A stretch of DNA of 32,342 bases. Origin: Candidatus Micrarchaeota archaeon. GTDB taxonomy: Archaea > Micrarchaeota > Micrarchaeia > Micrarchaeales > Micrarchaeaceae. The stretch is from the NCBI GenBank assembly GCA_028867845.1, contig JAGWFU010000001.1, positions 1-32,342 of the forward strand. The letters run 5' to 3'. The position numbers and the translations under genes were made by a program. This document shows, piece after piece, positions 1,567-23,539 of the stretch (the first letter of the stretch is position 1; every line of letters begins with the position of its first letter). Under the pieces are notes generated by a model. The model ran no database searches, was not told where the DNA came from, and was given only the letters and a program-made list of their open reading frames with translations.

Positions 1567-2244
1567 CTAGAGTCTTCCCATCATGAACATCCAGGCTGCG
1601 ACGATAATTATTATGATTACTATCGTAGCCACTCCCATGATAAGCATGCTCTTCCCGCTCATTCCCATCTTTGGCGCAACCGCCGGCTCGGCTGCAGGCT
1701 GTGCCTCCGCCGCAGGCGTCTGCGCCGGCATTGGCTGCTGCATCTGCATCGCAGGTTGCGGTGCTCCCGGCTGCGCCGGCGCAGCAGGCATGCCGTTCTG
1801 CACCTGCAGGAACCCCTTCTCGGTGAGCGTTATGTCTATGGATCCGTTCCTGAACTCGTAGGACAGGTATTGCTGCTCGGCGAGCTTGTAGAGGTGCATC
1901 GCGAGGTCCCTTGACGTCACGTTAACCGCGCCTGTTATGTCGATCAGGCTCCTCTTGCCCTTCGAGAGCTGTGTTATTATCGCAAAGTCGAGGTGGTCGA
2001 ATCCGCCTTTGGCCTTCTCGTTCGCCTCCGCGACCGTGGCCTTGCCCAAATCGGTCACGCTGAGCGCGCTCTGCCCAGGGAACGTGGTCGTGAAGTCCAC
2101 GAGCCCCTTCTGCTTGAGGCCGCCGAGGATGTTGGACGCGTCGAAAAACGAGGAGTTTATCAGGCTGCCAAACTTCTCCACTACAGTATCAGTTTTCACC
2201 CTAGAGAGTGATATCAGGTCGATAAAGTTAACATCAGAAGCCAT
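1567..2244 (-). CDS. Hypothetical tail-anchored protein: two tandem winged-helix-like repeats, a Pro/Ala/Gln-rich linker and a C-terminal TM helix
   Basis: Start moved to MASDVNF (ATG 2244-2242), because the longer ORF would run through its own TATA box at about 2276-2289. Two ~65-aa repeats end in ...LSVTDLGKATV and ...ITLTEKGFLQV (wHTH-like). They are followed by PAAPAQPGAPQPAMQMQQPMPAQTPAAEAQPAAEP and the hydrophobic tail LIMGVATIVIIIIIVAAWMFMMG. Confidence 0.6.
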   Translation of the reverse strand: MASDVNFIDLISLSRVKTDTVVEKFGSLINSSFFDASNILGGLKQKGLVDFTTTFPGQSALSVTDLGKATVAEANEKAKGGFDHLDFAIITQLSKGKRSLIDITGAVNVTSRDLAMHLYKLAEQQYLSYEFRNGSIDITLTEKGFLQVQNGMPAAPAQPGAPQPAMQMQQPMPAQTPAAEAQPAAEPAVAPKMGMSGKSMLIMGVATIVIIIIIVAAWMFMMGRL

Positions 2245-2275
2245 CGAGTCACCGCTATCGTATAAAGAAAGAAAT

Positions 2276-2289
2276 CTATTTATAGGCTC
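2276..2289 (-). promoter_or_regulatory. Putative BRE/TATA promoter for the 1567-2244 gene
   Basis: The reverse strand reads GAGCCTATAAATAG, about 35-40 nt upstream of ATG 2244. It matches the recurrent (A)AGC(C/T)TTAAATA-type element seen before many genes in this window. Confidence 0.4.
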
Positions 2290-2399
2290 TCTCGGACTGC
2301 ACACGCTGTTTGGCCGCAGTGGGCCGCACAATCCAAAGCTTAATTAAATGGTATCTCGCAATGTTATTAGACCAAAGTAATCCGACCAGTTGATTTTAA

Positions 2400-3656
2400 A
2401 TGCAATTCAAGTTTTTCGGCGCGGCACAGGAAGTTGGGCGTTCAGCCATATTCATGAAGGACATAAAGGGCATCATGTTCGACTACGGGATAAAGCTCGG
2501 CACGGAGAAGCCCGAGTACCCGATAGGCCTGCCCCAGGTAGATTCCGTTGTGCTCAGCCACGCCCACATAGACCACTGCGGCGCGCTGCCGATGATATAC
2601 AACGGGCAGTACGTGCCCACATACGGCACAAGGCCCACGCTCAAGCTCGCGAACATACTTCTTGACGACTCGCTCTCAGTAGCGAGGAAGAACCACACGC
2701 AGGCGAAGTTCAGCAAGAGGCAGATAAAGGCGTTCAACAACAAGTTCCAGAACAAGGACTACCACCACCCGTTCAGGATAGGCGACATGGAGCTCGAGTT
2801 CTACGATGCAGCCCACATATCGGGCAGCGCTGCCACTCTTATAACTAGGAAGAACGCGAAGGCTAACAAGCGCGTGCTTTACACCGGCGACTACAAGCTC
2901 AGCGAGCAGGCGCTGCACAAGGGCGCTGAGACCGTGGAGTGCGACGTCATGGTCACAGAATCGACTTACGCCACAAGGAAGCACCCGCAGAGGGAGGAGC
3001 TGATAAACAGGTTCATCAGCAAGGTCAAGGAGACGCTCGACGCGGGAGGAAACGCGCTTGTGCCGGTCTTCGCAGTTGGCAGGAGTCAGGAGATACTTTA
3101 CCTGCTCCATAAGCACAACCTATCGGGTTACACTTACATAGACGGCATGGCAAGGGCCGCAACCAAGGCAGTGCTGGACTTCCCCAACTACATAAGGAAC
3201 GCGGATGAGCTCGAAGACGCGCTGGGGGAGGCTACAGTCATATCGGAGCACTCGCACAGGAAGGAGGCGCTAGAGAGCCCATCGGTAATACTCACGACCG
3301 CGGGGATGCTGAGCGGCGGACCGGTGCTCAACTACATAACCAAGCTCAACAAGTACTCCCACATAATGCTCACCGGATACCAGGTCGAGGGCAGCAACGG
3401 AAGGACCCTGCTCGACCACAAGAAGGTCACGATCGAGGGAGTGGTCCACAAGATAGACACACCCGCAACGTACTTCGACTTCTCGGCCCATGCTGGCAAG
3501 GACGACCTATACGACTACGTGAAGAGATGCAACCCGAGCACGGTCATCTGCATACACGGCGACGCGGAGAACTCGAAGGACTTCGCTGAGAACCTCACTC
3601 TGGAGGGATACAAGGCATACGCCCCTCAGCTCGGAGAGACGATCAAGCTTGACTGA
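2400..3656 (+). CDS. Beta-CASP family metallo-beta-lactamase-fold ribonuclease (aCPSF2/RNase J-like, no KH domains)
   Basis: 418 aa. MBL motif 2 is VVLSHAHIDHCGALP, with downstream D/H motifs (YTGDYK, ESTYA, FSAHAG, IHGD) in the order typical of beta-CASP nucleases. Confidence 0.85.
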   Translation: MQFKFFGAAQEVGRSAIFMKDIKGIMFDYGIKLGTEKPEYPIGLPQVDSVVLSHAHIDHCGALPMIYNGQYVPTYGTRPTLKLANILLDDSLSVARKNHTQAKFSKRQIKAFNNKFQNKDYHHPFRIGDMELEFYDAAHISGSAATLITRKNAKANKRVLYTGDYKLSEQALHKGAETVECDVMVTESTYATRKHPQREELINRFISKVKETLDAGGNALVPVFAVGRSQEILYLLHKHNLSGYTYIDGMARAATKAVLDFPNYIRNADELEDALGEATVISEHSHRKEALESPSVILTTAGMLSGGPVLNYITKLNKYSHIMLTGYQVEGSNGRTLLDHKKVTIEGVVHKIDTPATYFDFSAHAGKDDLYDYVKRCNPSTVICIHGDAENSKDFAENLTLEGYKAYAPQLGETIKLD

Positions 3657-3676
3657 TTCTTGTAAAAACAGATTGA

Positions 3677-4714
3677 CTAGAACTGCCCTACGTTAGGCAT
3701 GTTGATGTCGAACTCCTGCCCCTCCATCGGATACAGCTGCGCAGATGGTGCGCTTTCGTAATTGTTCCTCGAGTAGGCGAGCACCACTATTGCTACGAAT
3801 CCTATCGCCGCGAGCAGCGCGAGATAAAGAGTCCCGCTGTTCAGGTACTGGTAGCTGGCAAGTGCAACGTTGGCGAATACAGTAACTATGGCTACGCTGT
3901 ATCCCCTCAGTGACTGCAGGAAGAGCAGCATCGCAGCAACCACAGCGAACACCGCGAGGACGCCCTGCGCGATCGCCGCCATGTAGCTGTAGTTTATGTT
4001 CGACAGGAATGCGAATATGCCAACCGCGTTGGCGTAGCCGATTATGTAGGCCAGCTGGCCGTTCGCGAATATCACGAACACGGCAAACATCACGAGCAGC
4101 AGCGTGGCCGCGACGGTGCTCAGGTTGTTGTAAGTGGAATATCTCTCCTTCTCCTCAGAATAGGTGGGGGCCTTGTCCACGTCCTCCAGGCAGTAGTAGT
4201 TGCCGTTGTACTCCGCTATGTCCTCGAAGCAGAAGGGCCTGTGGCAGTAGTTGCACCTTGAGTAGGCCTTCCTCCACGGGTGCCACGTGCAGTGCAGGTT
4301 CTGCACCGCCTCCCTGCTCATGTATTCAGCCCGCGTCTGTGCCGCGCTCTTGTTTATAAGCGCCTCCTGCATCTGGTCGTCGGACTCGTAGACCTCGCCT
4401 GTCTTCTCTGCAGGCGCGTAAGACTCGTAAGCTTGTTTCCTCTCTACAGGTCGCTCCTCCACCTGCTTCGGCTTTGCAAACTGCATCGGAGTCGCGGGCT
4501 CCCTCTCCTGAGGTGCCTCCTTCTGCTTGTTGAAGAACAGAGGCTTCCTCTCAGGCTTCTGGACCGGCTCTGCAACTGCCTTCGGCTCAGGTTTCTTAAC
4601 GGCCTTGACCTCGGGCTTCTTCTCAGGCTTTGTCTCCGCTGGCTTCTCAACAGGCCTCTTCTTTTGCTGCTCCCTAACCTTGAAAATAATCAGATCGTTA
4701 GGGTCTATAGCCAT
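3677..4714 (-). CDS. Membrane protein with a Lys/Pro/Glu-rich N-terminal region, a B-box-like zinc finger and about 4-5 C-terminal TM helices
   Basis: Start set at MAIDPND (ATG 4714-4712), whose A is shared with the TGA stop of the upstream S26e gene (TGATG overlap). It has a KPE-rich low-complexity stretch (KKRPVEKPAETKPEKKPEVKAVKKPEPKAVAEP...), the Cys/His motif CTWHPWRKAYSRCNYCHRPFCFEDIAEYNGNYYC, and a hydrophobic C-terminal half. Confidence 0.65.
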   Translation of the reverse strand: MAIDPNDLIIFKVREQQKKRPVEKPAETKPEKKPEVKAVKKPEPKAVAEPVQKPERKPLFFNKQKEAPQEREPATPMQFAKPKQVEERPVERKQAYESYAPAEKTGEVYESDDQMQEALINKSAAQTRAEYMSREAVQNLHCTWHPWRKAYSRCNYCHRPFCFEDIAEYNGNYYCLEDVDKAPTYSEEKERYSTYNNLSTVAATLLLVMFAVFVIFANGQLAYIIGYANAVGIFAFLSNINYSYMAAIAQGVLAVFAVVAAMLLFLQSLRGYSVAIVTVFANVALASYQYLNSGTLYLALLAAIGFVAIVVLAYSRNNYESAPSAQLYPMEGQEFDINMPNVGQF

Positions 4715-4950
4715 CAGATCTCCTTGTTGGCCTTCCTGATCGCGTTCTGCTTCAGCTTCTCGAAGATTCCCCTGTGCTTGGCGCAGCTTATGCAGTACCA
4801 CTGCTTCCTCCTCTCGAAGAACCTTACGTCCATGTTGTTCTTCATCTCGGTATTGAAGGTTATCGCCCTCTCATAGGCTACGCCCTTGTTTCTCGGGACC
4901 TTCCTTCCGCATGAGTCGCAAACTACTACTGTCTCCTTTCCTCTTGTCAC
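4714..4950 (-). CDS. rps26e: 30S ribosomal protein S26e (short form)
   Basis: 78 aa. VVCDSCGRKVPRNKGV...(about 30 aa)...YCISCAKHRGI matches the S26e pattern (C.nC.r.vPkDKA...yCvSCAiH). The basic C-terminus is RKANKEI. Confidence 0.65.
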   Translation of the reverse strand: MTRGKETVVVCDSCGRKVPRNKGVAYERAITFNTEMKNNMDVRFFERRKQWYCISCAKHRGIFEKLKQNAIRKANKEI

Positions 4951-5021
4951 TTATACACCTTTAACTCTATACAATTGGCATAAGAAGATTAATAATCCTT
5001 GCATCGCGGCGACGAATCCCG

Positions 5022-6146
5022 CTAGCCAAGCTTTGTTACTGAAACCGAGTCTGTCTTCTTGTTTGTGGTGTAGACATATCTGCCATCGGGGGTTATTACT
5101 GATGGTGAGCCTACAGTCCAGACTATCTTGTCTGAGTTAAGGTCCACTATATAGTAGATGGAAGCCCCCTGGTTGCCCCCTCCAACCACATACATGTACC
5201 TGTTGCTGGGCCCGAATGCAATCTGGAAAGGTCCCTTAATGAATGGGACAACTGTGTAGTAGATGCCGGTAGTTGTATTTATTGCAATGATGCTATTCCC
5301 GCATATTGCGTACAGGTAATTCGGATTCGCCGATGTGTCCAATGAATCCGGCGGGTTCAGGCCGCCGCATACCGTTTGTACTGCATGCACGAGCCCATAA
5401 TCTGAGGCATTCAGGATGTCAATGCCGCCGTCGCTTTCCGCCACATAGATGTACTTTCCGTCAGGGCTTAGCTCGATGTAGATCGGAGTATGGTAGGTAC
5501 CAGTGGACCCAGATTGGGTGAAATTGGGGCCCAAAGGCACGCTCACCGTGTTGTTTGTCAAGGAATTGGTCACAAGTATAACGTTCTGATACGGCACGGT
5601 CTCATACACATATCTTCCATTACTAGAGGGCCTGATGGTGCTGGCGTTGTAAGCTGTAGCCACCGCATACATTATGCTTGCAGTGCTGGTGTTCGCTATC
5701 CACACATTACCATACTCAGGTATGGTGCTGAAACTGGAATTCAGGAAGTAAAACGTTGCACCGCTCTCAGAATTTCCAAAACGTATGTAACCAGCACCAT
5801 TGTAGCCTAAGCTATCCACCAGTTTGTTAGAGGTCAGATTCAGCACCGAAATGCTCTGTGTGCACACAACAAGCAGATACCTGCCATCCGTAGTTATCGC
5901 CATGCCCTTGGGATCAAAGCACGTACCTATGGTGGCAACCACCTTGTTCTCAGAGGCGTTTATCACCGAGACCGTGCTACTGTTCGTGTTCCCTACATAC
6001 AGGTAAGCGCCACTTGGGGAGACCATTATGGGGTAGGGGGACTTACCCACAGATATCCTACTAGCTGCGTTAATGTAAGCCAGGCCCACAATTGCCACTA
6101 TAATCAGGATTAAGACAGCGATTACGGCCGCCTTAGTGCTGGTCAC
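5022..6146 (-). CDS. Membrane-anchored extracellular YVTN-family beta-propeller repeat protein, rich in N-glycosylation sequons
   Basis: GTG start at 6146. N-terminal TM helix (AAVIAVLILIIVAIVGLAY). Repeated ~40-aa units of the form P.G.A.SPDG.Y.YV.N...S.VSVI......V...I (for example SPSGAYLYVGNTNSSTVSVINASENKVVATI, TTDGRYLLVVCTQSISVLNL, SPDGKYIYVAESDGGIDILNASD, TPDGRYVYTTNKKTDSVSV). Confidence 0.75.
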   Translation of the reverse strand: MTSTKAAVIAVLILIIVAIVGLAYINAASRISVGKSPYPIMVSPSGAYLYVGNTNSSTVSVINASENKVVATIGTCFDPKGMAITTDGRYLLVVCTQSISVLNLTSNKLVDSLGYNGAGYIRFGNSESGATFYFLNSSFSTIPEYGNVWIANTSTASIMYAVATAYNASTIRPSSNGRYVYETVPYQNVILVTNSLTNNTVSVPLGPNFTQSGSTGTYHTPIYIELSPDGKYIYVAESDGGIDILNASDYGLVHAVQTVCGGLNPPDSLDTSANPNYLYAICGNSIIAINTTTGIYYTVVPFIKGPFQIAFGPSNRYMYVVGGGNQGASIYYIVDLNSDKIVWTVGSPSVITPDGRYVYTTNKKTDSVSVTKLG

Positions 6147-10693: not shown

Positions 10694-11389
10694 ATGGACC
10701 ATACAACTGCAGGACCGGAGGCAAAGCAGGCGGAGGAGGAGAACGCAAACTTCAACGCCTACGTCACCGAGGATGGCAAGCAGTACAGGGTCCCATACAG
10801 GATGATTAAGAGGCTAATTTTCTCCAACGTCAAGAAGGAGGAGCTGCAGGACATACAGCACTCAGCAAGATTGCAGTACAGGCTCATGCTGATGGATCCA
10901 GTGATCAAGGCGAACGTCAACTTCACCAAGAGGATCATAACGATTCTGTACAACCCCAAGACTGCGGAGAACATAAGGGAGAAGACCAGCAGCGAGGAGC
11001 TCATCCAGTTCCTCGCCAAGCAGGGGGTAAACGTCGACACCAACTCGATGGCCGAGGAGGACTACGACTACTACAAGAACCTCTACACCTACGCCTACAT
11101 GCCCCCCACGATCAGGGAGACAACTCCATACGGATACACGAAGGAAGAGTGGCTCAAGATAAGGGACGACTGGAAGACGAAGATGACGAAGGTCGAGGCC
11201 GGCAAGCTGGGCAAGCACAGGGAGTGGCAGGACAGCTACCTTGAGGAGAATCCCGAGATAGCCAAGGTGATAGCGCCCGAGTTCAAGCCCAAGGCCGCGG
11301 CGGTGGTCAAGAAGTCGCTGCTCGGCGGCATATTGGGGAACAAGGAGGCCAAGAAGAAGGAGAAGGGATTCTGGTTCCACGGAATCTGA
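10694..11389 (+). CDS. Hypothetical protein with an HMA (ferredoxin-like)-fold-like segment lacking the CxxC metal site, and a Lys-rich C-terminus
   Basis: ATG at 10694 (the track begins at GTG 10685). DPVIKANVNFTKRIITILYNPKTAENIREKTSSEELIQFLAKQGVNV resembles the GV..v.V.l....a.V.Yd......eel..ai..aGy half of heavy-metal-associated domains. No Cys occurs where GMxCxxC would be. Codon usage is typical of this window. Confidence 0.55.
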   Translation: MDHTTAGPEAKQAEEENANFNAYVTEDGKQYRVPYRMIKRLIFSNVKKEELQDIQHSARLQYRLMLMDPVIKANVNFTKRIITILYNPKTAENIREKTSSEELIQFLAKQGVNVDTNSMAEEDYDYYKNLYTYAYMPPTIRETTPYGYTKEEWLKIRDDWKTKMTKVEAGKLGKHREWQDSYLEENPEIAKVIAPEFKPKAAAVVKKSLLGGILGNKEAKKKEKGFWFHGI

Positions 11390-11404
11390 TTTTTCAGTGA
11401 GCGG

Positions 11405-12085
11405 ATGCAGAAGACACTCGTACTTATAGACCCGGACAGGGCGCTGGTCAGGGAGGCCAAGAACGTATCCCAGTACTACATGGAGGGGATAAGGATGGTC
11501 TACGGCGTCTACATGGAGGACATAAACCTCGACGAGTTCGTGGGCAGGACGACGCAGGAGACTGTGATAGAGCTGCTCCAGAGGAACGGAGTGCCGCAGG
11601 AGGAGATAAACGAGAAGCTCCACGTATTCGCGGAAGAGCTGCCGTACGAGCACTACAACGTAGCGGGCCACGACGCCGCCATTCTTGGCGACGGGACAAA
11701 GGACGCTTTAGAGAGATTGTCTAAGGACAACGACATAATATTGGGCGCGGCATCGGGCCAGCTAGAGAGGATACTCAAGAACATGTTCGAGCGTGCAGGG
11801 CTGAAGATGGAGTCGTATTTCAAGTTCGGAGCGTACGGCGACGCGGCGGTAGGGATGGAGGGCATACTCAACGCAGCCCTGGGCAAGGCGAACGGATTCG
11901 GCATTCCGAAGGAGAGGATATTCTTTGTCGGGTACTCGCCGCAGTCCATAACGGCTGCAAAGGCGCTGGGCATACGCACCATCGGCATATCCACTGACTA
12001 CTTCTTCAAGGAGCAGCTATCCCACGCCGGGGCAGAGCAGGTTACGAAGAGCCCGAGGGACATACCTAAGCTTACCAGAAACTGA
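11405..12085 (+). CDS. HAD-superfamily hydrolase-like protein (phosphoglycolate phosphatase-like fold) with degenerate motifs
   Basis: Motif I-like LVLIDPDRAL (DxD present, GT absent). A cap-like helical region follows. Motif II-like ILGAASGQ. The motif IV region is FFVGYSPQSITAAKALGIRTIGIS, where canonical proteins have VGDS..DI.AA..AG. It starts 15 nt after the preceding gene. Confidence 0.55.
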   Translation: MQKTLVLIDPDRALVREAKNVSQYYMEGIRMVYGVYMEDINLDEFVGRTTQETVIELLQRNGVPQEEINEKLHVFAEELPYEHYNVAGHDAAILGDGTKDALERLSKDNDIILGAASGQLERILKNMFERAGLKMESYFKFGAYGDAAVGMEGILNAALGKANGFGIPKERIFFVGYSPQSITAAKALGIRTIGISTDYFFKEQLSHAGAEQVTKSPRDIPKLTRN

Positions 12086-12093
12086 GCCGCAGG

Positions 12094-12110
12094 AAGATAC
12101 CTATTTATAC
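12094..12110 (+). promoter_or_regulatory. Putative BRE/TATA promoter for the pilin-like adhesin gene
   Basis: AAGATACCTATTTATAC lies about 30-35 nt upstream of the GTG 12134 / TTG 12143 candidate starts, which suggests a leaderless or short-leader transcript. Confidence 0.4.
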
Positions 12111-12142
12111 CTGCGATTTCCCATAGCTAATCGAGTGATTCG

Positions 12143-14761
12143 TTGGAAGGCAGGGTCAAGGCGCAATCCGCGATGGAGTATCTCTCCACCTACGGCTGGG
12201 CGATACTCGTAATAGTGATTGTCGCAGCGCTTCTGTACCTGTACTCCTCGACGCCATCAACCGTCGTACCCACCTCCTGCAAATTCATAAGCGGGGTGTA
12301 CTGCAACGACATAGTGCTGGGCACCAACGCGATGACCAAGGCCACTACGGTCGGGCTGTTCCTAACTAACTCCCAACCCTACCCTATGGCCAAGCCCTAC
12401 TTCTTCGCGAAGGTCGCGGGCGCGAACACCACAGGCACATCATGCTCGCCCAACTACGTCCTCGCCGGAGGCTCAATGGTCTGCGTGCTCAACCTGCCAG
12501 TATCAACCACGATGGGCCAGTTCCTTGCAGGCAACCTTTACCTGAATGCGACTTACTGCGGGCTGCAGCCCAACTACTCGCAGGCGAACCTGTGCAACAC
12601 AGCGCCAAGGCAGACCTACATAGGGATCTTCAATTCGCACGCAGAGCCGCTCATAAGCACTAACACTATAATAACTCTGGCAGCCGCCAACGCCACGCAG
12701 TCGGCCAACGGCGCGCTTGACCCGCTGATAGCTACTGTCACGCTTCTCGGATACCCGCTCTCAGGGGCGTCTGTGAACTTCACGGCGAACGTCCCCGGCT
12801 ATCCACTGTCGCCCAACTTCACGACTACGAACACCACAGGGAAGGCACTCAGCCACATATCAGGCACCAGGACAGGCAACGTGCTCGTGACCGCAGCGTA
12901 CGCAGGTGAGGACGCCAACGCTGTGGTGCAGTTCGTGCCTGCGACAAACGTAAAGTTCGCTGTCACGGGATTCCCCTACTGCTCTACAGCAGGCCAGATA
13001 ATAACTATCGACGGGACTGGTTACACCTGCGGCCAACTCACATCGACGACCTTTTCGTGGGGCGCTGGAAGCGTCCACTCCTGCGTAGTCAACGCGATAG
13101 TGCCTGACACCTCAACCATAAGGGGGGCGTGCAAGACCACTGGAGTCTACTGCTCGGCGAACTCCAACGCCGTCATAACGATCAACTGCACGCCCCAGTA
13201 CTACCTCACCGAGTCCGCAAGCCCGCCCGCCGGCGGGTCTATATCCCCCGGCAGCAACTGGTACAACAACACCACTCCTGTAAGCATAAGCACGGCCAAC
13301 AGCGTGGGATACACCTTCCAGGGATGGGCAGGCTCAGGCACCGTGTCCTACACCGGCTCCTCCAACCCCGCCACAGTGACGATGGACTCGCCGGTTGCCG
13401 AGCAGGCCACATACTCGCTGCAGGCGACGTTCTTCGAGAGCGGCCTCGCCGGCGGCACATCGTGGGCAGTGACGCTCAACGGCAACACCCTCTCCACTAC
13501 GGGCACGTCCATAACCTTCACCGGCCTGCCGTCTGGCTCGTTCCCGTGGAGCACCAACGCCGTGGTATCCTGCGGCACTGGGTGCCAGTACCTGGCGTCG
13601 CCCACATCGGGCATGGTATCGACTACGGGCGGTTCCGCGTCCCAGACGGTAACATACACGCCCCAGTACTACCTCACGATGGCAGCTGGGGCAAACGGGG
13701 CTGTCTCGCCATCGAGCGAGTGGCAGAACTCTGGCAACGTGGTGACCATAACAGCCACGCCCAACGCCAATTTTGCGTTTAGCGGCTGGACAGGCACTGG
13801 TTCGGGTTCCTACTCCGGGACAGCGAACCCCTCTACAGTGACAATGAACGGGGCGGTATCGGAGACCGCAGCATTCGCATTCCAGACTACTTACAATCCC
13901 GCGAGCGGCAACTACGCCGGCGATGTGATATTCAGCTCGTCCACAACACTTACCGGCGCCGTCATCGCCTCTAACATGGTGCTGGTGCAGAGCGGCGTTA
14001 CCGTTAATGAGAATGGTCAGTATCTGGAGGGCAACATACTGGTGCAGAATGTGGGCACTATCAATGATGGCTATGACGGCGGCGCCGGAGGTGCTGGGGG
14101 CACTGCTGGTGGCACAGGCGGCAACGGCGGGGCAGGTGGCGCACTAAAAAGCATGACAAGTGCATATTTCAGCCAAATGCTTACAGGTGGACATGGTGGC
14201 AATGGCGGCGGGGGCGGGGGCGGGGACTGCAGCTATTGCGGCAGCGCCTATGGCGGTATTGGTGGTGCTGGCGGAGCGGGAGGAGGCATAGTTCAAATTT
14301 ATTCAGGAAATGTGATTAACCAAGGAATAGTCACTGTTAGCGGCGGCAATGGGCTGCCTGGTGGCTCGGTGAGCGGGGCAGGTGGCGGGGGCGGCGGGGC
14401 AGGTGGCGGGGGCGGCACAATCTTGATAGGGTACGGTGGTAGCTTTACCGCAGGCACGCTATACTATGGCAAGGGTACCGACGCCATTGGTGGAACAGGA
14501 ACCGGCGGTTCAATTACAGAAGGTTCTGGCGGTTCTACTGGTGGAGGCGGAGGAGGCCAAGGCACGACCATCCCATCAGGCAGCCCCTGCAACGAATATA
14601 TAGGAGGAAGTGGCGGCAACGGCGGTGGCGGCGCTGCAGGCGGTGCTGGCGGGGTAGGAAACAACTGCGGCCCATCTAGCCCTGCCGGCGGCAACGGGGC
14701 CTCTGGGACCAATACAAATTCTGCTGGGCAACTGATTACAAAATCGGGATGGACGCCTTAA
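12143..14761 (+). CDS. Giant type IV pilin-like (class III signal peptide) surface protein/adhesin. Modules: pilin-like N-domain, Ig-like (Big_1-like) domain, InlB-B-repeat-like modules and a glycine-rich C-terminal region.
   Basis: The N-terminus (M)EGRVKA|QSAMEYLSTYGWAILVIVIVAALLYLY is a short basic leader, then Q-x-S-x-E-Y/L and a hydrophobic helix, as in archaeal prepilins (E at +5). The start must be non-ATG (TTG 12143 or in-frame GTG 12134, just after a TAA at 12128), because ATG 12173 would delete the leader. Big_1-like segment: LIATVTLLGYPLSGASVNFTAN...TTNTTGKALSHISGTRTGNVLVTAAYAG. Two InlB-B-repeat-like units: TPQYYLT....GYTFQGWAGSG...SNPATVTMDSPV...ATY and FAFSGWTGTGSGSYSGTANPSTVTMNGAVSETAAF. 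The C-terminal ~250 aa are (GGx)n-rich with interspersed beta-strand-like IVQIYSGNVINQGIVTVSGGNG and TILIGYGG. Confidence 0.8.
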   Translation: MEGRVKAQSAMEYLSTYGWAILVIVIVAALLYLYSSTPSTVVPTSCKFISGVYCNDIVLGTNAMTKATTVGLFLTNSQPYPMAKPYFFAKVAGANTTGTSCSPNYVLAGGSMVCVLNLPVSTTMGQFLAGNLYLNATYCGLQPNYSQANLCNTAPRQTYIGIFNSHAEPLISTNTIITLAAANATQSANGALDPLIATVTLLGYPLSGASVNFTANVPGYPLSPNFTTTNTTGKALSHISGTRTGNVLVTAAYAGEDANAVVQFVPATNVKFAVTGFPYCSTAGQIITIDGTGYTCGQLTSTTFSWGAGSVHSCVVNAIVPDTSTIRGACKTTGVYCSANSNAVITINCTPQYYLTESASPPAGGSISPGSNWYNNTTPVSISTANSVGYTFQGWAGSGTVSYTGSSNPATVTMDSPVAEQATYSLQATFFESGLAGGTSWAVTLNGNTLSTTGTSITFTGLPSGSFPWSTNAVVSCGTGCQYLASPTSGMVSTTGGSASQTVTYTPQYYLTMAAGANGAVSPSSEWQNSGNVVTITATPNANFAFSGWTGTGSGSYSGTANPSTVTMNGAVSETAAFAFQTTYNPASGNYAGDVIFSSSTTLTGAVIASNMVLVQSGVTVNENGQYLEGNILVQNVGTINDGYDGGAGGAGGTAGGTGGNGGAGGALKSMTSAYFSQMLTGGHGGNGGGGGGGDCSYCGSAYGGIGGAGGAGGGIVQIYSGNVINQGIVTVSGGNGLPGGSVSGAGGGGGGAGGGGGTILIGYGGSFTAGTLYYGKGTDAIGGTGTGGSITEGSGGSTGGGGGGQGTTIPSGSPCNEYIGGSGGNGGGGAAGGAGGVGNNCGPSSPAGGNGASGTNTNSAGQLITKSGWTP
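14373..14414 (+). repeat. Perfect 2 x 21-nt tandem duplication inside the glycine-rich coding region
   Basis: GCGGGGCAGGTGGCGGGGGCG at 14373-14393 is repeated exactly at 14394-14414. It encodes GAGGGGG twice. Confidence 0.9.
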
Positions 14762-15076
14762 TTACTAGGCCGGTTAGGTATCGCACTCAGACAGCAACTG
14801 ACTACTTCTCCTCTCCAAGGATCAGCTATCGCAGCGGGGTGCGGAGCAGTAACCAAGAGCTCTAAGGACATCCCGATACTCGTGAGGGGTTGAGCCCACA
14901 GGGAAGGGGGCACAATCAATACTTATCCCACATGCGCCCTGTGTGTCAAATACGGGGCGACGGGAGCTCCTGCAACTATCAAGGCTGCACTGACAACGGT
15001 AGTGCAGGAGACTGAGGCACAGCCATAATAGCTTTCGACGCCCTTGGGCACGGAAACCCATAGATGATGCCCGATA

Positions 15077-15087
15077 CTATTTTTAAG
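15077..15087 (+). promoter_or_regulatory. Putative TATA box for fibrillarin
   Basis: CTATTTTTAAG is centred about 30 nt upstream of ATG 15114. Confidence 0.45.
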
Positions 15088-15113
15088 ATGAGCATGCAAA
15101 GCTGTATGATTAG

Positions 15114-15770
15114 ATGGCGGTAAAGCGGCTCTTCGAGAACGTCTATCTGATAGACGGGAAGCTGGCCACCCCGAACCTGAAGAGGGGCAAGAGGGTATAC
15201 AACGAGGAGCTGGTGCAGGTCGACAGCACAGAGTACAGGCTGTGGAACCCCTACAGGAGCAAGCTCGCCGCTGCGATACTCAACGGCATGAAGAACATGT
15301 CGATAAAGGAGGGCTCGGACGTGCTCTACGTGGGAGCGGCGACGGGCACCACGGTCAGCCACGTGAGCGACATAGTCAAGGGGGGCAGCGTCTTCGCCGT
15401 GGAGCTGGCGGAGAGGAACATGAGGAACCTGTTGGAGCTCTGCGACGCCAGGGACAATATAATGCCCATACTCTCCGATGCGAGGCAGACCGAGAACTAC
15501 GAGTCCGTCGTGGGCAAGGTGGACGTCATGTACCAGGACGTATCGGCGAAGGAGCAGGCCGCCATTCTGCTTGCCAACAGCAGGTTCCTGAAGGAGGGAG
15601 GCATAGCATACTTCATAATAAAGTCGCAGAGCGTAGACATATCGAAGAGGCCGAAGGAGGTGTACGAGCAGGAGCTGAAGCTGCTCGAGGGTGCCTTCAA
15701 GATAGAGGAGCGCATAAGCCTAGAGCCCTATGACTCTATGCATCTGTTCGCGGTGCTGAGGAAGGTGTGA
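15114..15770 (+). CDS. flpA: Fibrillarin-like rRNA/tRNA 2'-O-methyltransferase
   Basis: 218 aa. YRLWNPYRSKLAAAILNG, the SAM-binding VLYVGAATGTTVSHVSDIV, and DVMYQDVSAKEQAAIL are hallmark fibrillarin motifs. Confidence 0.92.
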   Translation: MAVKRLFENVYLIDGKLATPNLKRGKRVYNEELVQVDSTEYRLWNPYRSKLAAAILNGMKNMSIKEGSDVLYVGAATGTTVSHVSDIVKGGSVFAVELAERNMRNLLELCDARDNIMPILSDARQTENYESVVGKVDVMYQDVSAKEQAAILLANSRFLKEGGIAYFIIKSQSVDISKRPKEVYEQELKLLEGAFKIEERISLEPYDSMHLFAVLRKV

Positions 15771-15772
15771 GG

Positions 15773-16594
15773 ATGGACCAGAGGAGGTACATGGATTATA
15801 TCTCAAAGTTTGCCACAGCTACGCGGCTCCTCTGCATACACTGTGGGGCAGAGACCCCATCATTGGGGCAGTTCTCCCTATGCTCAGCGTGCGAGAACAT
15901 AGTCGACACAACTGCTGACGCGGCGGCAAAGACGCCAGCAATGGCAGACTCGATAAGGCAGATAAAGGCTCTTGTCGACTCGGGGAATTTCGACGCTGCG
16001 ATTGCGGCATACAAGGGAATAGACCCGACGATGGAGGAGCCGGCACTGCTGTACGCGCTGGCGCTGCTGTACATAAGATACTCCAACAGCGTGCTCGGCG
16101 GAGTCAATTACACAAAGCAGGGATTCATGTACGAGAACATCGATATGCGGGACAGGTCGCTGGCACTGATATCGCTGTCGAAGAGGATGCTTGCCAGGGC
16201 GATAGTGCTTCTCACTGCATCTCTTGCAAAAGGAGAGGAGTACAGGCAGCGTTACCTCCTGCTGCTGTGCCAGATTAAGTTCGGGAAGATCAGGGGAGCA
16301 AGCGAGAGCATTGAGGCACTGAAGAAGTCCAGCCAGCCCGCATTGGCGTCCTACGCATCCCTTCTGCTTGACGCGAAGAGCGGAGAGATGGAGCCCATGC
16401 GCGCGGCCATCGAAGAGATGGAGAGATCGGGAAACATATTCGTTAATACCTTATTTTACGATGCGTACTTGGACTTGAAGGAGAGGAAGGCGGATTCTGC
16501 AAGAATGAAGCTTGCTGCGCTCTCGGCGTACTCGGAGAGCCAGAGTATTGAGGCCTTGATGGAAGAGATAAAGGAGGCCTTGGACCCGCAGTGA
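15773..16594 (+). CDS. Hypothetical protein: N-terminal zinc ribbon plus an all-helical (TPR-like) body
   Basis: ATG 15773 is 2 nt after the fibrillarin stop, and the alternative GTG 15767 overlaps it. The zinc ribbon is CIHCGAETPSLGQFSLCSAC. The rest is predicted helical with TPR-like A/L/Y periodicity. No Nop domain motifs were seen. Confidence 0.6.
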   Translation: MDQRRYMDYISKFATATRLLCIHCGAETPSLGQFSLCSACENIVDTTADAAAKTPAMADSIRQIKALVDSGNFDAAIAAYKGIDPTMEEPALLYALALLYIRYSNSVLGGVNYTKQGFMYENIDMRDRSLALISLSKRMLARAIVLLTASLAKGEEYRQRYLLLLCQIKFGKIRGASESIEALKKSSQPALASYASLLLDAKSGEMEPMRAAIEEMERSGNIFVNTLFYDAYLDLKERKADSARMKLAALSAYSESQSIEALMEEIKEALDPQ

Positions 16595-16600
16595 TTCAAT

Positions 16601-17203
16601 TCACTGCTTGTAGGAGATTGATACCTGGTTGTTGTAAAGAAGCGCGTTCTGCGTGAGCAGCGCCCGTACAGTCACGCCTATGATTGAGTTTATCGGTATG
16701 AGCGGCGTGAAGTTCAGCGGGTATGTGCCGTTTATCGGCACAGCAAACTCCTGACTGCCAACGAGGAGGTTCGACTTGCCGGTCAATCTTGCGTTGGCAG
16801 TGGCCATGATCGTTATTGCGTTGGTCGAGTTAAGTTGACTGTAGAGCGTCTGCTGGAGCGAGTACGCGCTAATCCCCCCCAAAACGATCTCGTACTCGGC
16901 GCCGTTGCTTATGTAGTTCTGGATGGTCCCGCTGTTCCTCAGAGCCGAGAGAGTGCCGAGAACTGAGTTTGTGACCTCGGGGCTGTTCGAGTTGATCCCC
17001 AGCATCGCAGTGCTGGAGTAGCCGGCTATGACCACGTTGGCAGTGCCCGCTGCGAAGAAGCTCTGCTCCTGTATCGAGCTGGTAGTGGAGCTTGAAGCCA
17101 CTGCTGGCGCGTTGCTGCTGATCCCGAGGTAGGAGAATATGAACATCAGCCCTATGAAGACGGAGCCAGCAAACAGCAGCTTCTTCTTTCTCTTCTCCTC
17201 CAT
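16601..17203 (-). CDS. Hypothetical exported or membrane-anchored protein
   Basis: 200 aa. Basic N-terminus plus hydrophobic helix (MEEKRKKKLLFAGSVFIGLMFIFSYLG), then a Ser/Thr/Asn-rich mature part. It starts 7 nt downstream of the FKBP gene on the same strand. Confidence 0.6.
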   Translation of the reverse strand: MEEKRKKKLLFAGSVFIGLMFIFSYLGISSNAPAVASSSTTSSIQEQSFFAAGTANVVIAGYSSTAMLGINSNSPEVTNSVLGTLSALRNSGTIQNYISNGAEYEIVLGGISAYSLQQTLYSQLNSTNAITIMATANARLTGKSNLLVGSQEFAVPINGTYPLNFTPLIPINSIIGVTVRALLTQNALLYNNQVSISYKQ

Positions 17204-17210
17204 GCGCGCT

Positions 17211-17852
17211 TCAGCTCTTCTGCTTCGCCTCCTCAGGCCTCACGTACTCTTCGTCGATGTCCACCTTGCCCACGTTCTTGAAGTAGGTGAAGATGCCAGC
17301 GACAAGGTTGGCCTTGCCCATGAAATAATCAGCGTTCTTCTTTACCGAGTTGTCGAAGCTCAGCCTGACATCCTTGTCCTTCACATCGATCTTTGTTACA
17401 TCAAGGCCGGTCATCTTGCCGAGTGCAGATATCTTCTCCTTGTCGTCGGTGAGGTTCTTCACTACCTTGACCTCGTATGTTATCTCCCTGCCCGCGAGCG
17501 GGTGGTTTGCGTCCACTACCACTCTTCCGGAGTTGACGCTCTTCACTATCGCGGTCATGTTGTCCAGGTTCACCTGAAGACCCGGATACGGATCTATATC
17601 GTGCTTCCTGAACTCCGCAATCGGCATTATCCTGACGAGGTCCTCCATGCGCTCGCCGAACGCCTCATCGGGCTTAAATGTGGCCTTCTTGCTCTCGTTG
17701 ATGCCCATAGAGTGCAGCTCCCTGTCGAGCCCCTTTATCACTCCCTTGCTGCCCAGAACCACGAGCACCGGCCCGTAGCTGTTCTCCTTCTCGTGGGGCG
17801 CAGGCAGCGTGCACTCCTGCGTCGTCAACGCGATAGTGCTGGACACCTCCAC
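17211..17852 (-). CDS. Long-type archaeal FKBP (SlyD-like peptidyl-prolyl isomerase with IF/flap and C-terminal domains). The N-terminal strands are replaced, so it may be a pseudogene or a chimera.
   Basis: YGPVLVVLGSKGVIKGLDRELHSMGINESKKATFKPDEAFGE...IMPIAEF...GLQVNLDNMTAIVKSVNSGRVVVDANHPLAGREITYEVKVVKNL aligns by eye with archaeal FKBPs from about residue 45 onward. The ~30-40 N-terminal residues (..GD.V...Y.G....G.VFDTS..) are absent. The first ~23 codons of the ORF are the antisense of the adhesin-gene remnant at 17784-18026. Confidence 0.65.
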   Translation of the reverse strand: MEVSSTIALTTQECTLPAPHEKENSYGPVLVVLGSKGVIKGLDRELHSMGINESKKATFKPDEAFGERMEDLVRIMPIAEFRKHDIDPYPGLQVNLDNMTAIVKSVNSGRVVVDANHPLAGREITYEVKVVKNLTDDKEKISALGKMTGLDVTKIDVKDKDVRLSFDNSVKKNADYFMGKANLVAGIFTYFKNVGKVDIDEEYVRPEEAKQKS

Positions 17853-18026
17853 GATAAGAGGGGGGCCTGCAAGACAAACAACGTCTACTGCAGCGCGAGC
17901 CAGAACTCCACAATAACAATCAACTGCACGCCCCAGTACTACCTCACCGAGTCCGCAAGTCCGTCCGCCGGCGGCTCTGGCATTGTGGTAATAGCGTACA
18001 ACTCCCTAGGCAACGGGAATCCATAG
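17784..18026 (+). pseudogene. Chimeric, frameshifted remnant of a pilin-like adhesin paralogue: an A-type internal segment fused to a B-type C-terminus
   Basis: 17784-17975 is about 80-85% identical by eye to 13051-13242 of the 12143-14761 gene (SFSWGAGSVHSCVVNAIVLDTSTIR / GACKTNNVYCSASQNSTITINCTPQYYLTESASPSAGGS versus TFSWGAGSVHSCVVNAIVPDTSTIRGACKTTGVYCSANSNAVITINCTPQYYLTESASPPAGGS). A 2-nt insertion sits at the AAGAGGGGGG run (about 17858-17866). From about 17976 it continues as GIVVIAYNSLGNGNP*, matching the last residues of the 18279-19934 gene (GIVIIAYNALGNGTP*), also at the nucleotide level. Confidence 0.8.
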
Positions 18027-18241
18027 ACGTCCCCCCTCTCTGTCGTATCCCGCTAATATCTCCCCTCTTTAAGTCTTTACCCACAAGAAGAATGCCCAAC
18101 CGCTTGTGGCGTGGTTAAGGAACGAAGCTAGAGTACTTCGTGCCTGCCGCTATCCGATGCCCCGCCCCTTGGGATGGGGTTATCCACTTCTGTCGGGAAG
18201 AAATTCTGGCGGGACAACACACAAAGCCAGTATCGCCGTAA

Positions 18242-18252
18242 GATTATTAAAC
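18242..18252 (+). promoter_or_regulatory. Putative TATA box for the second pilin-like gene
   Basis: GATTATTAAAC is centred about 30 nt upstream of ATG 18279. This favours ATG 18279 over the in-frame ATG 18174. Confidence 0.35.
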
Positions 18253-18278
18253 TGTTACAGATAAGGCATATAGATTTG

Positions 18279-19934
18279 ATGGGGGGGGGAAAGGGCAAAC
18301 GGCTGAAACAGCAGTCGGCGCTGGAGCTGCTCACAACCTACTCGTGGGCCCTCCTGATAATCGCCATATTCGTGGCGGCAGTCGCAGTGATAAACAGCGC
18401 AAGGCCTGCGACCAACTATCTCGCATCCTCATGTTCAATAGAGCCACTTCTCCTGTGCACCCAGACCCTTCTCAACTACAACGCGATAAGCCCGATAAAA
18501 TTCACAATCCTCTTCCAGAATAACTTAGGGCAGACGATGTACTTCCCACTCAACTCGATCAACATAACTGTGACGAACATAGGCAACAAGGGAGTGACAT
18601 ACTCGAAGGGCAACTGCACCCCCTCCCTTGCACTGCAGGGCACGCCGATACTTTGCAGCGCCTACATACCCGGTACGTTCAAGCCCGCGATAGGAACGCA
18701 GGAGACCATACTGTTCTCGCTGAACTACCAATTGTGCAGGACCAACGCGCCCTCCTCCTGCGCCTCGACGCAGTACAGGACGGCCGGCCAGTCGTCGCAG
18801 ACCATGGCGCCCTCGGCAACCGTGTTCCACACGCTGAAGATAACTGCGAGTCCAACCTCGGGGTTCGTGAACCTCAACGGGGTGACATATCTCAACAACG
18901 CCAACGTCCTGCTTCTCACCAACAACTACAACGTGTACGCGATACCACCATCGGGGTACAAGTTCTCCTCTTGGGGAATCAGTGTGGGGGCAGGAGGCGG
19001 GACCTCAAGCGTCGTATCCAGCTCCACGCAGAACACGATACTCAATCTGGGGTCCAACGCGACCCTGACCGCCAACTTCGGCACCTTGCCGACTACGAGC
19101 ACGGTGACCCTGACTTCTACGTCAACGGCCTCAACCTCATCAACAACTACGTCATCGACTACAACAACCACCATATTCGCTGCTACCTGCGGAGGGAGCG
19201 CCAGCTCTTCATCCGGCAACACGATCTGCACATTTACCTCGAGCGGAACGTTCACACCTAACGGCGCAGGAAATGTTGCGGTTCTTGTAGTTGCGGGCGG
19301 AGGCGGCGGCGGAAAGTCTGGATTCGGAGGTGGAGGTGGGGGAGGCGTAGTCTATGCTTCATCGTATGCTGTAAGTAGTGTTGCTTACAGTGTTACAGTG
19401 GGCGGCGGCGGAAGTGGCGCGTACGATAATAACGGAATCAGCTCTGTATTCAGTACCATAACGGCAATTGGGGGTGGAGGAGCTTCAGGCCAAAACGGCG
19501 GTTCTGGGGGCGGATGTATGGGATGTAGTGCAGGAGGAACATCAATACAAGGAAACAGCGGCGGCGGAACCGGATATGGAAATAACGGTGCTGGAGTCTT
19601 AGATGAGTCCCATAGTGGCGGTGGTGGCGGTGCTGGGAGCCCGGGTAGTGCTGGATCTCCAGGAGCAGGCGGTGCAGGCGGATCCGGTATGGCATTTAGC
19701 ATTTCAGGTTCCGTGGTGTATTATGCCGGTGGAGGAGGGGGAATTTATGGTGGTGCTGGAGGTTCTGGGGGCGGAGGGAATGGCGTAGCCACCAATGGCA
19801 ACAATGGCTTTCCAGGAACTGCAAATACAGGCGGAGGCGGGGGCGCCGGAGGAGCAAGCGGAGATAATGGAGGAGATGGGGGATCTGGCATAGTCATAAT
19901 AGCGTACAACGCCCTTGGCAACGGCACTCCCTAA
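18279..19934 (+). CDS. Type IV pilin-like (class III signal peptide) surface protein with one InlB-B-repeat-like module, a Ser/Thr linker and a C-terminal polyglycine-rich domain (Gly_rich / ALK-LTK GRD-like)
   Basis: The N-terminus is MGGGKGKRLKQ|QSALELLTTYSWALLIIAIFVAAVAVI (Q-x-S-x-E motif plus hydrophobic helix). The pilin-like head has paired Cys. The B-repeat-like unit is GYKFSSWGISVGAGGGTSSVVSSSTQNTILNLGSNATLTANF. The linker is TSTVTLTSTSTASTSSTTTSSTTTTT. Then comes CTFTSSGTFTPNGAGNVAVLVVAGGGGGG....GGGGGGVVYAS...Y.VTVGGGG......GGGG...GGSGGG...YAGGGGG...NTGGGGGAGG...GGDGGSGIVIIAYN. This is the strand/poly-Gly alternation I recall for the 'glycine rich protein' family that includes the ALK/LTK glycine-rich domain. 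The track ORF starts at the in-frame ATG 18174. Confidence 0.8.
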   Translation: MGGGKGKRLKQQSALELLTTYSWALLIIAIFVAAVAVINSARPATNYLASSCSIEPLLLCTQTLLNYNAISPIKFTILFQNNLGQTMYFPLNSINITVTNIGNKGVTYSKGNCTPSLALQGTPILCSAYIPGTFKPAIGTQETILFSLNYQLCRTNAPSSCASTQYRTAGQSSQTMAPSATVFHTLKITASPTSGFVNLNGVTYLNNANVLLLTNNYNVYAIPPSGYKFSSWGISVGAGGGTSSVVSSSTQNTILNLGSNATLTANFGTLPTTSTVTLTSTSTASTSSTTTSSTTTTTIFAATCGGSASSSSGNTICTFTSSGTFTPNGAGNVAVLVVAGGGGGGKSGFGGGGGGGVVYASSYAVSSVAYSVTVGGGGSGAYDNNGISSVFSTITAIGGGGASGQNGGSGGGCMGCSAGGTSIQGNSGGGTGYGNNGAGVLDESHSGGGGGAGSPGSAGSPGAGGAGGSGMAFSISGSVVYYAGGGGGIYGGAGGSGGGGNGVATNGNNGFPGTANTGGGGGAGGASGDNGGDGGSGIVIIAYNALGNGTP

Positions 19935-23077: not shown

Positions 23078-23539
23078 ATGGAGATAAACGAGGCCAACCT
23101 GATAGAGCAGGAGCTGACATTGAGGAACCTCAGGGTGACCAAGGAGGTGGTCGAGACCAGGAGGTCGATAGTCAGGTGGCTGGCCCTCACCTTGGGAGTC
23201 ATCAGCCCCGGGGAGTCGAGGCTCACCGCCATATCCGTGCTGGACTCGGTGTTCTACTTCCAGTTCGGGCAGAGGAAGGACCCCACGGTGGAGGAGATGT
23301 CGGGATACATAAACCAGTCCTGGGGCGGGGAGATAAACGAGAAGACGCTCAGGTATCATCTGCTCCAGCTGAAGAAGGCCAACATAGTGGACAACGCAAA
23401 GGGGAAGTACTTCCTCACCTCGCCGCAGATGGGAGACAGGTATGACGCAGATGCATGGATAACCAATTACATAGATTCGCTTACAAGCCCGATAAAGGAG
23501 AAGACCAGGGCTGTGATAAAGGAGCTGAAGGGAAGATGA
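23078..23539 (+). CDS. Winged-helix DNA-binding protein (ArsR/MarR-like wHTH)
   Basis: ...TVEEMSGYINQSWGGEINEKTLRYHLLQLKKANIVDNAKGKYFLT is a recognition helix plus wing. The start is ATG 23078 (GTG 23069 is an alternative). Its TGA stop overlaps the ATG of the next gene (ATGA at 23536-23539). Confidence 0.6.
   Translation: MEINEANLIEQELTLRNLRVTKEVVETRRSIVRWLALTLGVISPGESRLTAISVLDSVFYFQFGQRKDPTVEEMSGYINQSWGGEINEKTLRYHLLQLKKANIVDNAKGKYFLTSPQMGDRYDADAWITNYIDSLTSPIKEKTRAVIKELKGR

Follow-up and report, generated by a model that had tools for sequence, protein, structure and literature searches.

Micrarchaeota and other DPANN archaea live attached to host archaea, and how they recognize and hold these hosts is largely unknown. 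A gene in the genome assembly of a Candidatus Micrarchaeota archaeon raises the question of whether a pilin can itself be the holding device. The gene lies at 12143..14761 (forward strand, TTG start, stop codon included) of a stretch of 32,342 nucleotides (assembly GCA_028867845.1, contig JAGWFU010000001.1, positions 1 to 32,342 of the forward strand), which we refer to as the window. Its predicted product of 872 residues, hereafter the target, appears to join the N-terminus of an archaeal prepilin to a long series of adhesin-type modules. Taking the full chain from signal to ligand, we lean towards reading the target as an archaeal modular type IV pilin with the function of an adhesin, and it is probably an attachment device. 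An initial annotation of the window had already proposed a pilin-type N-terminus carrying adhesin-type modules, and this central proposal is strengthened by the conservation of the leader, by homology to small pilins and by a cargo domain shared with other pilin modules. The functional statements made here on the target family are predictions from sequence.

The pilin reading depends on where translation begins. That the gene is real is evident from its best homologues, which reach E=1e-276; an exhaustive search with the target returned 6978 cluster representatives at E<=1e-3, including 470 at E<=1e-30. The initial annotation let the feature start at 12134 and offered GTG 12134 or TTG 12143 as start codons. 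The second stands but the first was a miscount: in frame, position 12134 opens an AGT codon, the nearby GTG begins at 12135 in another frame, and the coding sequence begins at 12143. With this AGT and an in-frame TAA at 12128-12130, the possible starts are therefore TTG 12143 and ATG 12173 only. Many homologues are called from the internal methionine of MEYL; in others a basic leader precedes QSA[M/L/I/V]EY. The DNA upstream of MEYL-called relatives encodes an in-frame KAQSA in all three cases read, namely ATG-MKFKNPLKAQSAMEYL in P0004, ATG-MAKAQSAMEYL in P0006 and TTG-QSSGKAQSAMEYL in the syntenic ortholog P0009. Because KAQSA is kept upstream and the internal methionine is replaced by leucine, isoleucine or valine in many homologues, ATG 12173 is not the conserved start, and conservation of the upstream residues places the predicted translation start at TTG 12143. 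P0009 and the window also share the sequence agtgat with a TTG a few bases on, and an AT-rich, TATA-like box about 33 nucleotides (nt) upstream. In the window this box (CCTATTTATA, 12101..12110, +) is a putative promoter element, with a similar AT-rich box at the matching relative position in the syntenic locus L004. The public calls for P0004, P0009 and P0006 (loci L001, L004 and L005), as well as for P0002, P0003 and P0031, begin at the internal ATG (MEYL...) and therefore miss the leader and the cleavage motif, which would hide family members from class III signal predictors.

From this start the target reads MEGRVKA/QSAMEYLSTYGWAILVIVIVAALLYLY, the slash marking the predicted cleavage site. 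The basic leader peptide MEGRVKA (aa 1-7, 12143..12163, +) ends in Ala7, and K6-A7-Q8-S9 fits the FlaFind 1.2 motif [KRDE][GA][ALIFQMVED][ILMVTAS] (PMC4307647), compared here as a sequence pattern. QSAMEYL follows the cleavage site, with Gln at +1 and Glu at +5, and leads into LSTYGWAILVIVIVAALLYLY; the hydrophobic window begins at residue 10 and the hydrophobic helix counts 21 residues. The predicted mature N-terminal alpha-1 helix (QSAMEYLSTYGWAILVIVIVAALLYLYSS, aa 8-36, 12164..12250, +) is supported by conservation and by AlphaFold2, which models a helix over residues 6-36 or 10-36. A six-frame scan of the whole window for the motif plus a hydrophobic stretch gave two matches only, each at the N-terminus of a long open reading frame (ORF). 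In an alignment of 25 N-terminal modules (N-modules) Q8 is conserved in at least 90% and E12 is invariant; along the helix Y17 and A20 are likewise invariant and Y13, T16 and W19 are at least 90% conserved among homologues. [KR][GA] precedes the conserved Gln in 18 of 24 family N-termini. Since this conservation spans paralogs whose downstream domains differ, unlike that of a cleaved Sec signal peptide, it implies a hydrophobic helix that would stay in the mature protein. The archaeal prepilin N-terminus described in the initial annotation, a basic leader followed by KA/QSAMEYL with Glu at +5 and a hydrophobic helix, is thereby borne out by both motif and conservation.

Is the part behind the helix a pilin as well? 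The predicted head is a beta-sandwich (aa 44-172, 12272..12658, +) with six cysteines (46, 54, 101, 114, 139 and 151) that are invariant in 25-39 homologues, in agreement with the Cys-paired head noted initially, and AlphaFold2 models the N-module as a long helix plus beta-sandwich at a mean predicted local distance difference test (pLDDT) of 89.9. A complete stand-alone protein of 162 residues (L024) matches target aa 5-163 with all six cysteines (37% identity, E=7e-36) and small pilins encoded in arrays align with aa 5-143 (32% identity, E=2e-14), these small relatives, used as pilin reference, being themselves predicted pilins only. The best Foldseek match of the N-module, a weak one, is the Pyrobaculum type IV pilin 8fk7_A (E=2e-3), with the Aap pilin and FlaF/FlaG also listed. 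Fold evidence being weakly supportive, it is sequence homology that carries the pilin argument.

This homology is broad. Proteins related to the N-module numbered at least 509 in a scan of one genome per species; almost all came from metagenome-assembled genomes (MAGs) of Micrarchaeota, and many share residues 1-60 only, that is, signal plus helix. Among ORFs with a target-type N-terminus in the fetched loci, 150-200 residues is the main length class (54 of 103). The small-pilin family itself has at least 4704 database entries at E<=1e-6, with a typical length of 165-195 residues, and one small-pilin relative carries the label 'UPF0333 family' in its source database. Small pilins occur at a Micrarchaeota locus (L050 7435-10510; L086 10001-11878; L087 7953-12741; L001 494-1054, reverse strand) in arrays of one to seven genes coding for about 175-205 residues, one for 260, the tandem arrays having three to seven; no Pfam family matches the small pilins. 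In three genomes the order is glutamate dehydrogenase or thymidylate kinase, pilin array, diphthamide synthase and L16 (in two of the three), FtsZ and Rad50. Also at L087, positions 2214-5363 hold an MCM helicase gene with an intein (PF14890 inside the MCM domain) and a product of 1049 residues.

Small pilins and giant relatives of the target are found in the same genomes. A Micrarchaeota contig of 1.05 Mb carries two giants in tandem (L012) and, elsewhere, a tandem array of five small pilins (L050), and all of them start with KAQSAMEY[LM]xTYGWAILIIAV. A close relative is represented by a 586,870-bp contig with about 78-80% nucleotide identity to the window. None of the 120 listed small-pilin matches lies on this contig; its small pilin, of 186 residues (L001:494-1054, reverse strand), was found by reading L001. 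Seventeen of its first 20 mature residues match those of the target, and it is encoded about 9 kb from the giant paralog P0004. Judged by this homology, aa 1-172 of the target are a predicted pilin module homologous to ordinary Micrarchaeota small pilins, and the conserved small-pilin locus is the likely partner of the giants.

Beyond the pilin module the chain continues as a series of beta domains. A predicted intimin/invasin-like immunoglobulin (Ig) domain of the Big_1 type occupies aa 177-265 (12671..12937, +): PF02369 matches at E=8.4e-7 with 29.4 bits, below the Pfam cut-off of 34.9, Foldseek pairs the region with intimin D00-D0 and invasin at E~1e-7 to 1e-6, and most homologues carry precomputed PF02369 matches. 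A Cys-rich beta domain follows (aa 266-349, 12938..13189, +; Cys 280, 296, 314, 330, 337 and 349), its strands modelled at a pLDDT of about 90. Two units resembling the InlB B-repeat each start with TPQYYLT, at aa 350 and 506. Unit 1 (aa 350-428, 13190..13426, +) also has a weak TIGR02543 match at aa 389-428, and unit 2 (aa 506-582, 13658..13888, +) contains the best stretch of the divergent InlB B-repeat family Flg_new_2 (PF18998) at aa 509-579; over its two stretches this family scores 52.8 bits, against a cut-off of 23.6. Of the adhesin modules first proposed, the two InlB-B units are thus recognized by their family, whereas the Big_1 domain falls short of its cut-off and is backed by structure comparison and homologues. 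Between the repeats lies an Ig-like beta domain (aa 429-505, 13427..13657, +; strands at pLDDT 55-82) that recurs with the repeats in relatives, and the stretch from the Cys-rich domain to the second repeat (about aa 280 to 580) recurs as a tandem unit in giants of 2000-3800 residues. The full-length AlphaFold2 model, in which the beta domains are well predicted up to about aa 580, has a pLDDT of 76 and a predicted TM-score (pTM) of 0.42, values that indicate a beads-on-a-string arrangement. A Foldseek search with this model returned mostly generic Ig arrays and was uninformative on the pilin question. Charged residues are very few (39 of 872), and N-glycosylation sequons showed no enrichment, with 10 observed versus 13.7 +/- 3.1 in shuffled sequences.

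The C-terminus is formed by a glycine-rich domain that we call type 1 (aa 583-872, 13889..14758, +; 36% Gly). These last 290 residues are more than mere low complexity: seven sequences align with 50 invariant columns, hydrophobic strands are interspersed, and the conserved motifs include TLTCNV..N.I.VN.GVTVNENGFY, GGGIVEIY.GN.IN.G, GGTILIGY and a terminal GQLITKxxW. The glycine-rich end with beta-strand motifs, initially put at about 250 residues, therefore holds in its description, but the search for a matching glycine-rich family, Gly_rich_2, failed. No Pfam family, Gly_rich_2 (PF21722) included, matches aa 580-872 at E<=10, and hhalign against the Gly_rich_2 domains of relatives gave a probability of 4%, so that an identity with Gly_rich_2 is rejected. 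A phage-derived glycine-rich region is rejected for the target on the same two results together with the lack of any PHROG match to the type-1 domain; it does hold for the second pilin of the window, described below. A viral origin of the target was also discarded, no relatives being found in IMG/VR. The type-1 domain also occurs behind Ser/Thr linkers on two further kinds of pilin module (P0227-P0229), and carrier and cargo are therefore independent, exchangeable units. A profile search with the glycine-rich domain gave 10 matches, but it was saturated by glycine words and did not recover its own input family, and thus says nothing on how widely the domain has spread.

From these observations we infer cleavage, polymerisation, filament position, adhesion and ligand binding of the target. 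A class III signal peptidase of the FlaK/PibD/EppA type, encoded elsewhere in the genome, would remove MEGRVKA to leave Gln at +1 and Glu at +5. Helix and disulfide-braced head (aa 8-172) form what is by homology a normal pilin module, and this module would be handled by the type IV pilus machinery of the small pilins. By analogy with bacterial modular pilins, which polymerise via their pilin module, probably at the tip (PMC8179133), the target would join filaments made mainly of small pilins at low frequency, its probable place being the tip or scattered positions on the shaft. The roughly 700 remaining residues, in the domain order described above, would serve as a beads-on-a-string stalk presenting a variable C-terminal cargo, which in the target is the type-1 glycine-rich domain, and this cargo may bind a ligand on the host cell, on a neighbouring cell or on a surface. 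Several paralogs per genome carry different cargos, and recombination among them, indicated by mosaic identity and a relic described below, reshuffles carrier and cargo. As to the machinery, two type IV pilus systems are found in Micrarchaeon Mia14 alongside a single FlaK-like peptidase, with key components common to many Micrarchaea (PMC5498576).

Several results weigh against this reading. Members of the T2SSE, T2SSF and Peptidase_A24 families are absent from the ORFs of the 32-kb window, as is any GxGD protein with multiple transmembrane segments, which confirms the initial statement that the window holds no gene for an assembly ATPase, platform protein or prepilin peptidase. Nor do such genes appear in five Pfam-annotated neighbourhoods (L001, L004, L005, L086 and L087), and a crude scan of about 87 fetched loci for Walker-A and GxGD motifs found no pilus ATPase or prepilin peptidase gene. 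The archaeal type IV pilin N-terminal models, proposed initially as a check on the prepilin call, came out negative: PF04021 (Class_IIIsignal) and PF07790 (Pilin_N) do not match the first 60 or 172 residues at E<=10, with noise at E ~0.1. Six of the 24 family members have Leu or Gln at -1, or His or Leu at -2, which is non-canonical for known peptidases. Structure comparison of the N-module gives no match at E<=1e-3; the TM-scores to pilins and FlaF/FlaG, about 0.24-0.49, stand amid those of generic beta-sandwiches, and a profile search of PDB sequences with the N-module found no match at E<=10. AlphaFold2 confidence is low for the glycine-rich domain, which has no confident model. Finally, a mature subunit of 865 residues may be sterically hard to polymerise, and incorporation into a filament is indistinguishable from simple membrane anchoring on the present data.

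The silence of the two N-terminal models extends to the small pilins. The two small array pilins of the lineage that were scanned have no Pfam match either, and precomputed annotation lists none for the rest. Because the models also miss the small pilins of this Micrarchaeota lineage, which they seem not to cover, their failure on the target is uninformative. A scan of the full-length target against NCBIfam likewise returned no pilin family.

The last point, anchoring without a filament, leads to the strongest competitor of a modular pilin. The target could be a class III-processed adhesin whose N-terminal helix anchors it to the cytoplasmic membrane or to a short pseudopilus stub, comparable to the sugar-binding bindosome proteins of Sulfolobus, and which reaches through the S-layer as a fibril outside any long pilus; we regard this as possible though rather unlikely. 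The N-terminal evidence fits it equally well, the mature protein is large at 865 residues, and class III signals are widely found on large functional proteins of archaea (10.64898/2026.04.22.720090). The gene also sits amid housekeeping genes and far from assembly genes, and bindosome proteins are likewise encoded away from their machinery. The small pilins, however, are encoded away from machinery genes too, so that gene location does not discriminate. On the side of the filament stands the N-module: its head is homologous to pilin-sized proteins encoded in tandem arrays and its helix is nearly identical to theirs, which favours an interface shared in assembly over simple anchoring. Moreover, the target has no substrate-binding domain and no ABC transporter is encoded nearby in the window.

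If the target does polymerise, giants could in principle do so together, as main subunits of a thick, decorated filament or sheath. Several paralogs per genome with near-identical helices and the two tandem giants of L012 would suit such a structure, yet the same genomes hold small pilins with a matching helix, often in the multi-gene arrays that are the usual signature of major pilins, and a subunit of 865 residues at every position is sterically implausible. We know of no precedent for a filament of giant pilin subunits and consider this arrangement very unlikely. Least probable of all, and hardly to be expected, is an ordinary Sec (type I) signal peptide with the protein released or held in the S-layer and devoid of pilin-like function: a basic n-region with a hydrophobic stretch is often called a signal peptide or transmembrane helix by generic predictors, and the Pfam pilin and class III models are without match, but the hydrophobic segment is about 21-27 residues long, QSAxEYLxTYGWA is highly conserved despite differing later domains as cleaved signals are not, Q+1 and E+5 are conserved or invariant within a FlaFind motif, the head is homologous to small pilins, and the known Micrarchaeum S-layer protein belongs to a different family.

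The modular-pilin reading also finds support around the gene, where the window bears traces of exchange between carriers and cargos. The neighbours of the target gene are housekeeping genes (ATP-grasp, beta-CASP nuclease, EPSP synthase, radical SAM, HAD hydrolase, fibrillarin, L7Ae and Nuo subunits). The 0.59-Mb contig of the close relative carries at least four giant paralogs, each of about 2-2.7 kb, scattered among housekeeping genes. Identity across the family is mosaic: the N-module of the target is 65-72% identical to those of P0002-P0009, and its C-terminal domain is common only to P0002-5 and P0011-13. Colinearity between the window and L004 extends to 13364 (target aa 407) and resumes at 19818, and the 6.4 kb in between are absent from L004. 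At L004 a single chimeric gene, P0009, joins the target-like N-module to a Gly_rich_2 domain; the break sets window positions 13365-19817 against L004 positions 11192-11894. Within the 6.4-kb segment lie the C-terminal half of the target, the fibrillarin gene, three ORFs and the greater part of a second modular pilin. Such a difference would be an insertion or a deletion, and the fibrillarin gene of the relative would have to lie elsewhere in its genome.

The second predicted modular prepilin (551 aa, 18279..19934, +), recognized by the motif scan and by its sequence, begins MGGGKGKRLKQ/QSALELLTTYSWALLIIAIF... and combines a class III-like N-terminus, a pilin head different from that of the target, an InlB-like repeat, a Ser/Thr linker and a Gly_rich_2 domain. 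The last matches PF21722 at E=5e-19 and the phage family phrog_2295 at E=5e-39, and in its C-terminus the protein is orthologous to P0009, 150 of 239 residues and all of the final 14 being identical. Its ORF extends upstream to ATG 18174; ATG 18279, about 30 nt past an AT-rich box, is the likely start. Between the two pilin genes lies a frameshifted relic of a giant pilin (17785..17978, +), detected by nucleotide similarity and tblastn and equivalent to target aa 303-366. Over 193 nt it is 83% identical to the target gene (nt 908-1098, about 13050-13240 of the window); it is recovered by tblastn in two different frames at 68% and 82.5% amino acid identity, and sits inside a probably spurious ORF of 295 residues (17139..18026). 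The relic looks like a footprint of recombination between paralogs. Taken together, mosaic identity, the break in synteny with L004 and the relic indicate recombination among paralogs.

Three other predicted surface proteins of the window have an N-terminal hydrophobic anchor, none of them with the Q...E class III motif: a YncE/lactonase-like beta-propeller (5022-6146, reverse strand), a Ser/Thr-rich protein of 200 residues (16601-17203, reverse strand) and a protein of 593 residues with a weak CARDB match at E=1.4e-3 (23455-25236, +). In the databases, the target-type family is also found, at up to 73% identity, on contigs filed under unrelated organism names, namely 'Candidatus Acidiferrales bacterium SMAG_U13911' (DATLRT01; L006, L007 and L045), 'Methanothrix sp.' (L026) and 'Marsarchaeota' (L009, L058 and L084). 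Mis-binning or mislabelling of MAGs is the likely cause.

The target family is a concrete candidate for host attachment: it is present in multiple copies, it couples a pilin module to variable surface-binding modules, and it accounts for an appreciable part of a small genome, with at least four genes of about 2-2.7 kb in the 0.59-Mb contig. More speculatively, and with considerable doubt on our part, Micrarchaeota and perhaps other DPANN episymbionts may keep a combinatorial library of modular pilins in which carriers are recombined with interchangeable cargos and displayed on type IV pili for host recognition. If so, recombination among paralogs would diversify or switch host range as phage receptor-binding proteins do, and the relic fragment and the mosaic genes would be traces of carrier/cargo recombination. 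Some cargos, such as Gly_rich_2, are common with phage proteins.

How does the target compare with known systems? In the Epd pilins of Methanococcus maripaludis the leader ends in [KR][GA] and is followed by Gln at +1 and Glu at +5. These pilins are substrates of a dedicated class III signal peptidase (UPF0333 / PF04021 class), and 'system 1' type IV filament loci occur in methanogens, Thermococcales and DPANN (10.64898/2026.04.22.720090; PMC4858521). The target shares the leader end, Gln at +1 and Glu at +5, and stand-alone pilin genes at separate loci are known for 'system 1'. Unlike Epd pilins, which are small, it has about 700 extra residues and matches neither PF04021 nor PF07790. The sugar-binding bindosome proteins of Sulfolobus and Saccharolobus (PMC3047682; 10.64898/2026.04.22.720090) resemble the target in being encoded away from the assembly system and in numbering several per genome for one machinery. 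They differ in that the target has no solute-binding domain in Pfam or NCBIfam and no ABC transporter nearby, and carries adhesin-type Ig and InlB modules behind a head homologous to small pilins. A bindosome-type substrate-binding protein was accordingly rejected as an identity for the target, which matches no such family and has HAD hydrolase, fibrillarin and housekeeping genes as neighbours. The Micrarchaeota S-layer protein SLP_Mh was rejected as well: the target matches no S-layer family in Pfam or NCBIfam and is set apart by the published description of SLP_Mh, which has TIGR01567-like S-layer domains and a predicted signal cleavage site at Ala26/Gly27.

The initial annotation called the combination of domains on a pilin anchor not a characterised architecture. 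This was overstated, since a large multi-copy family is already public, modular pilins are established in bacteria and adhesin-like class III proteins have been predicted in archaea. Public databases list hundreds of family members under the names 'hypothetical protein' or 'InlB B-repeat-containing protein'. Large proteins with class III signals, often rich in conserved cysteines, have been proposed as adhesins or minor pilins in archaeal pilus loci (Makarova, Koonin and Albers 2016, PMC4858521). Those proteins lie inside the pilus loci of cultivated Euryarchaeota and Crenarchaeota, whereas the target family is Micrarchaeota-specific, scattered and multi-copy, with exchangeable cargo. With intimin, invasin and the InlB proteins of Listeria the target shares a rod of Ig-like domains that presents a terminal domain, a binding domain in those proteins, judging by the Big_1, Flg_new_2 and Foldseek matches. 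In place of their outer-membrane beta-barrel or cell-wall anchor it has a pilin helix, and in place of a C-type lectin-like domain an uncharacterised glycine-rich domain.

The closest parallel is with the bacterial modular pilins, among them PilB (vWA) and PilC (lectin) of Streptococcus sanguinis, CofB of enterotoxigenic Escherichia coli and an 860-residue multi-domain pilin of Candidatus Falkowbacteria from the candidate phyla radiation (Raynaud et al. 2021, PMC8179133). The target follows their plan, with a predicted pilin module (aa 1-172) succeeded by Big_1, two Flg_new_2 units and the glycine-rich domain. Common to both are a class III signal, a leader of about seven residues and an N-terminal pilin module with modules grafted at its C-terminus, as well as a predicted adhesive role and tip location, many architectures produced by tinkering, and presence in ultra-small symbiotic lineages. 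The published bacterial set is defined by the N-methylation motif IPR012902, and the target therefore falls outside it. Its signal is of the archaeal type (K-A/Q...E+5), without the bacterial G/F/M-T-L-x-E pattern (Gly, then Phe or Met, at the cleavage site); its head is an archaeal-style beta-sandwich with three probable disulfides; its stalk, of about six domains, is much longer; its gene lies outside a pilus operon and it is known from sequence alone. The target family would thus extend to archaea a modular-pilin principle that has so far been systematically documented only in bacteria.

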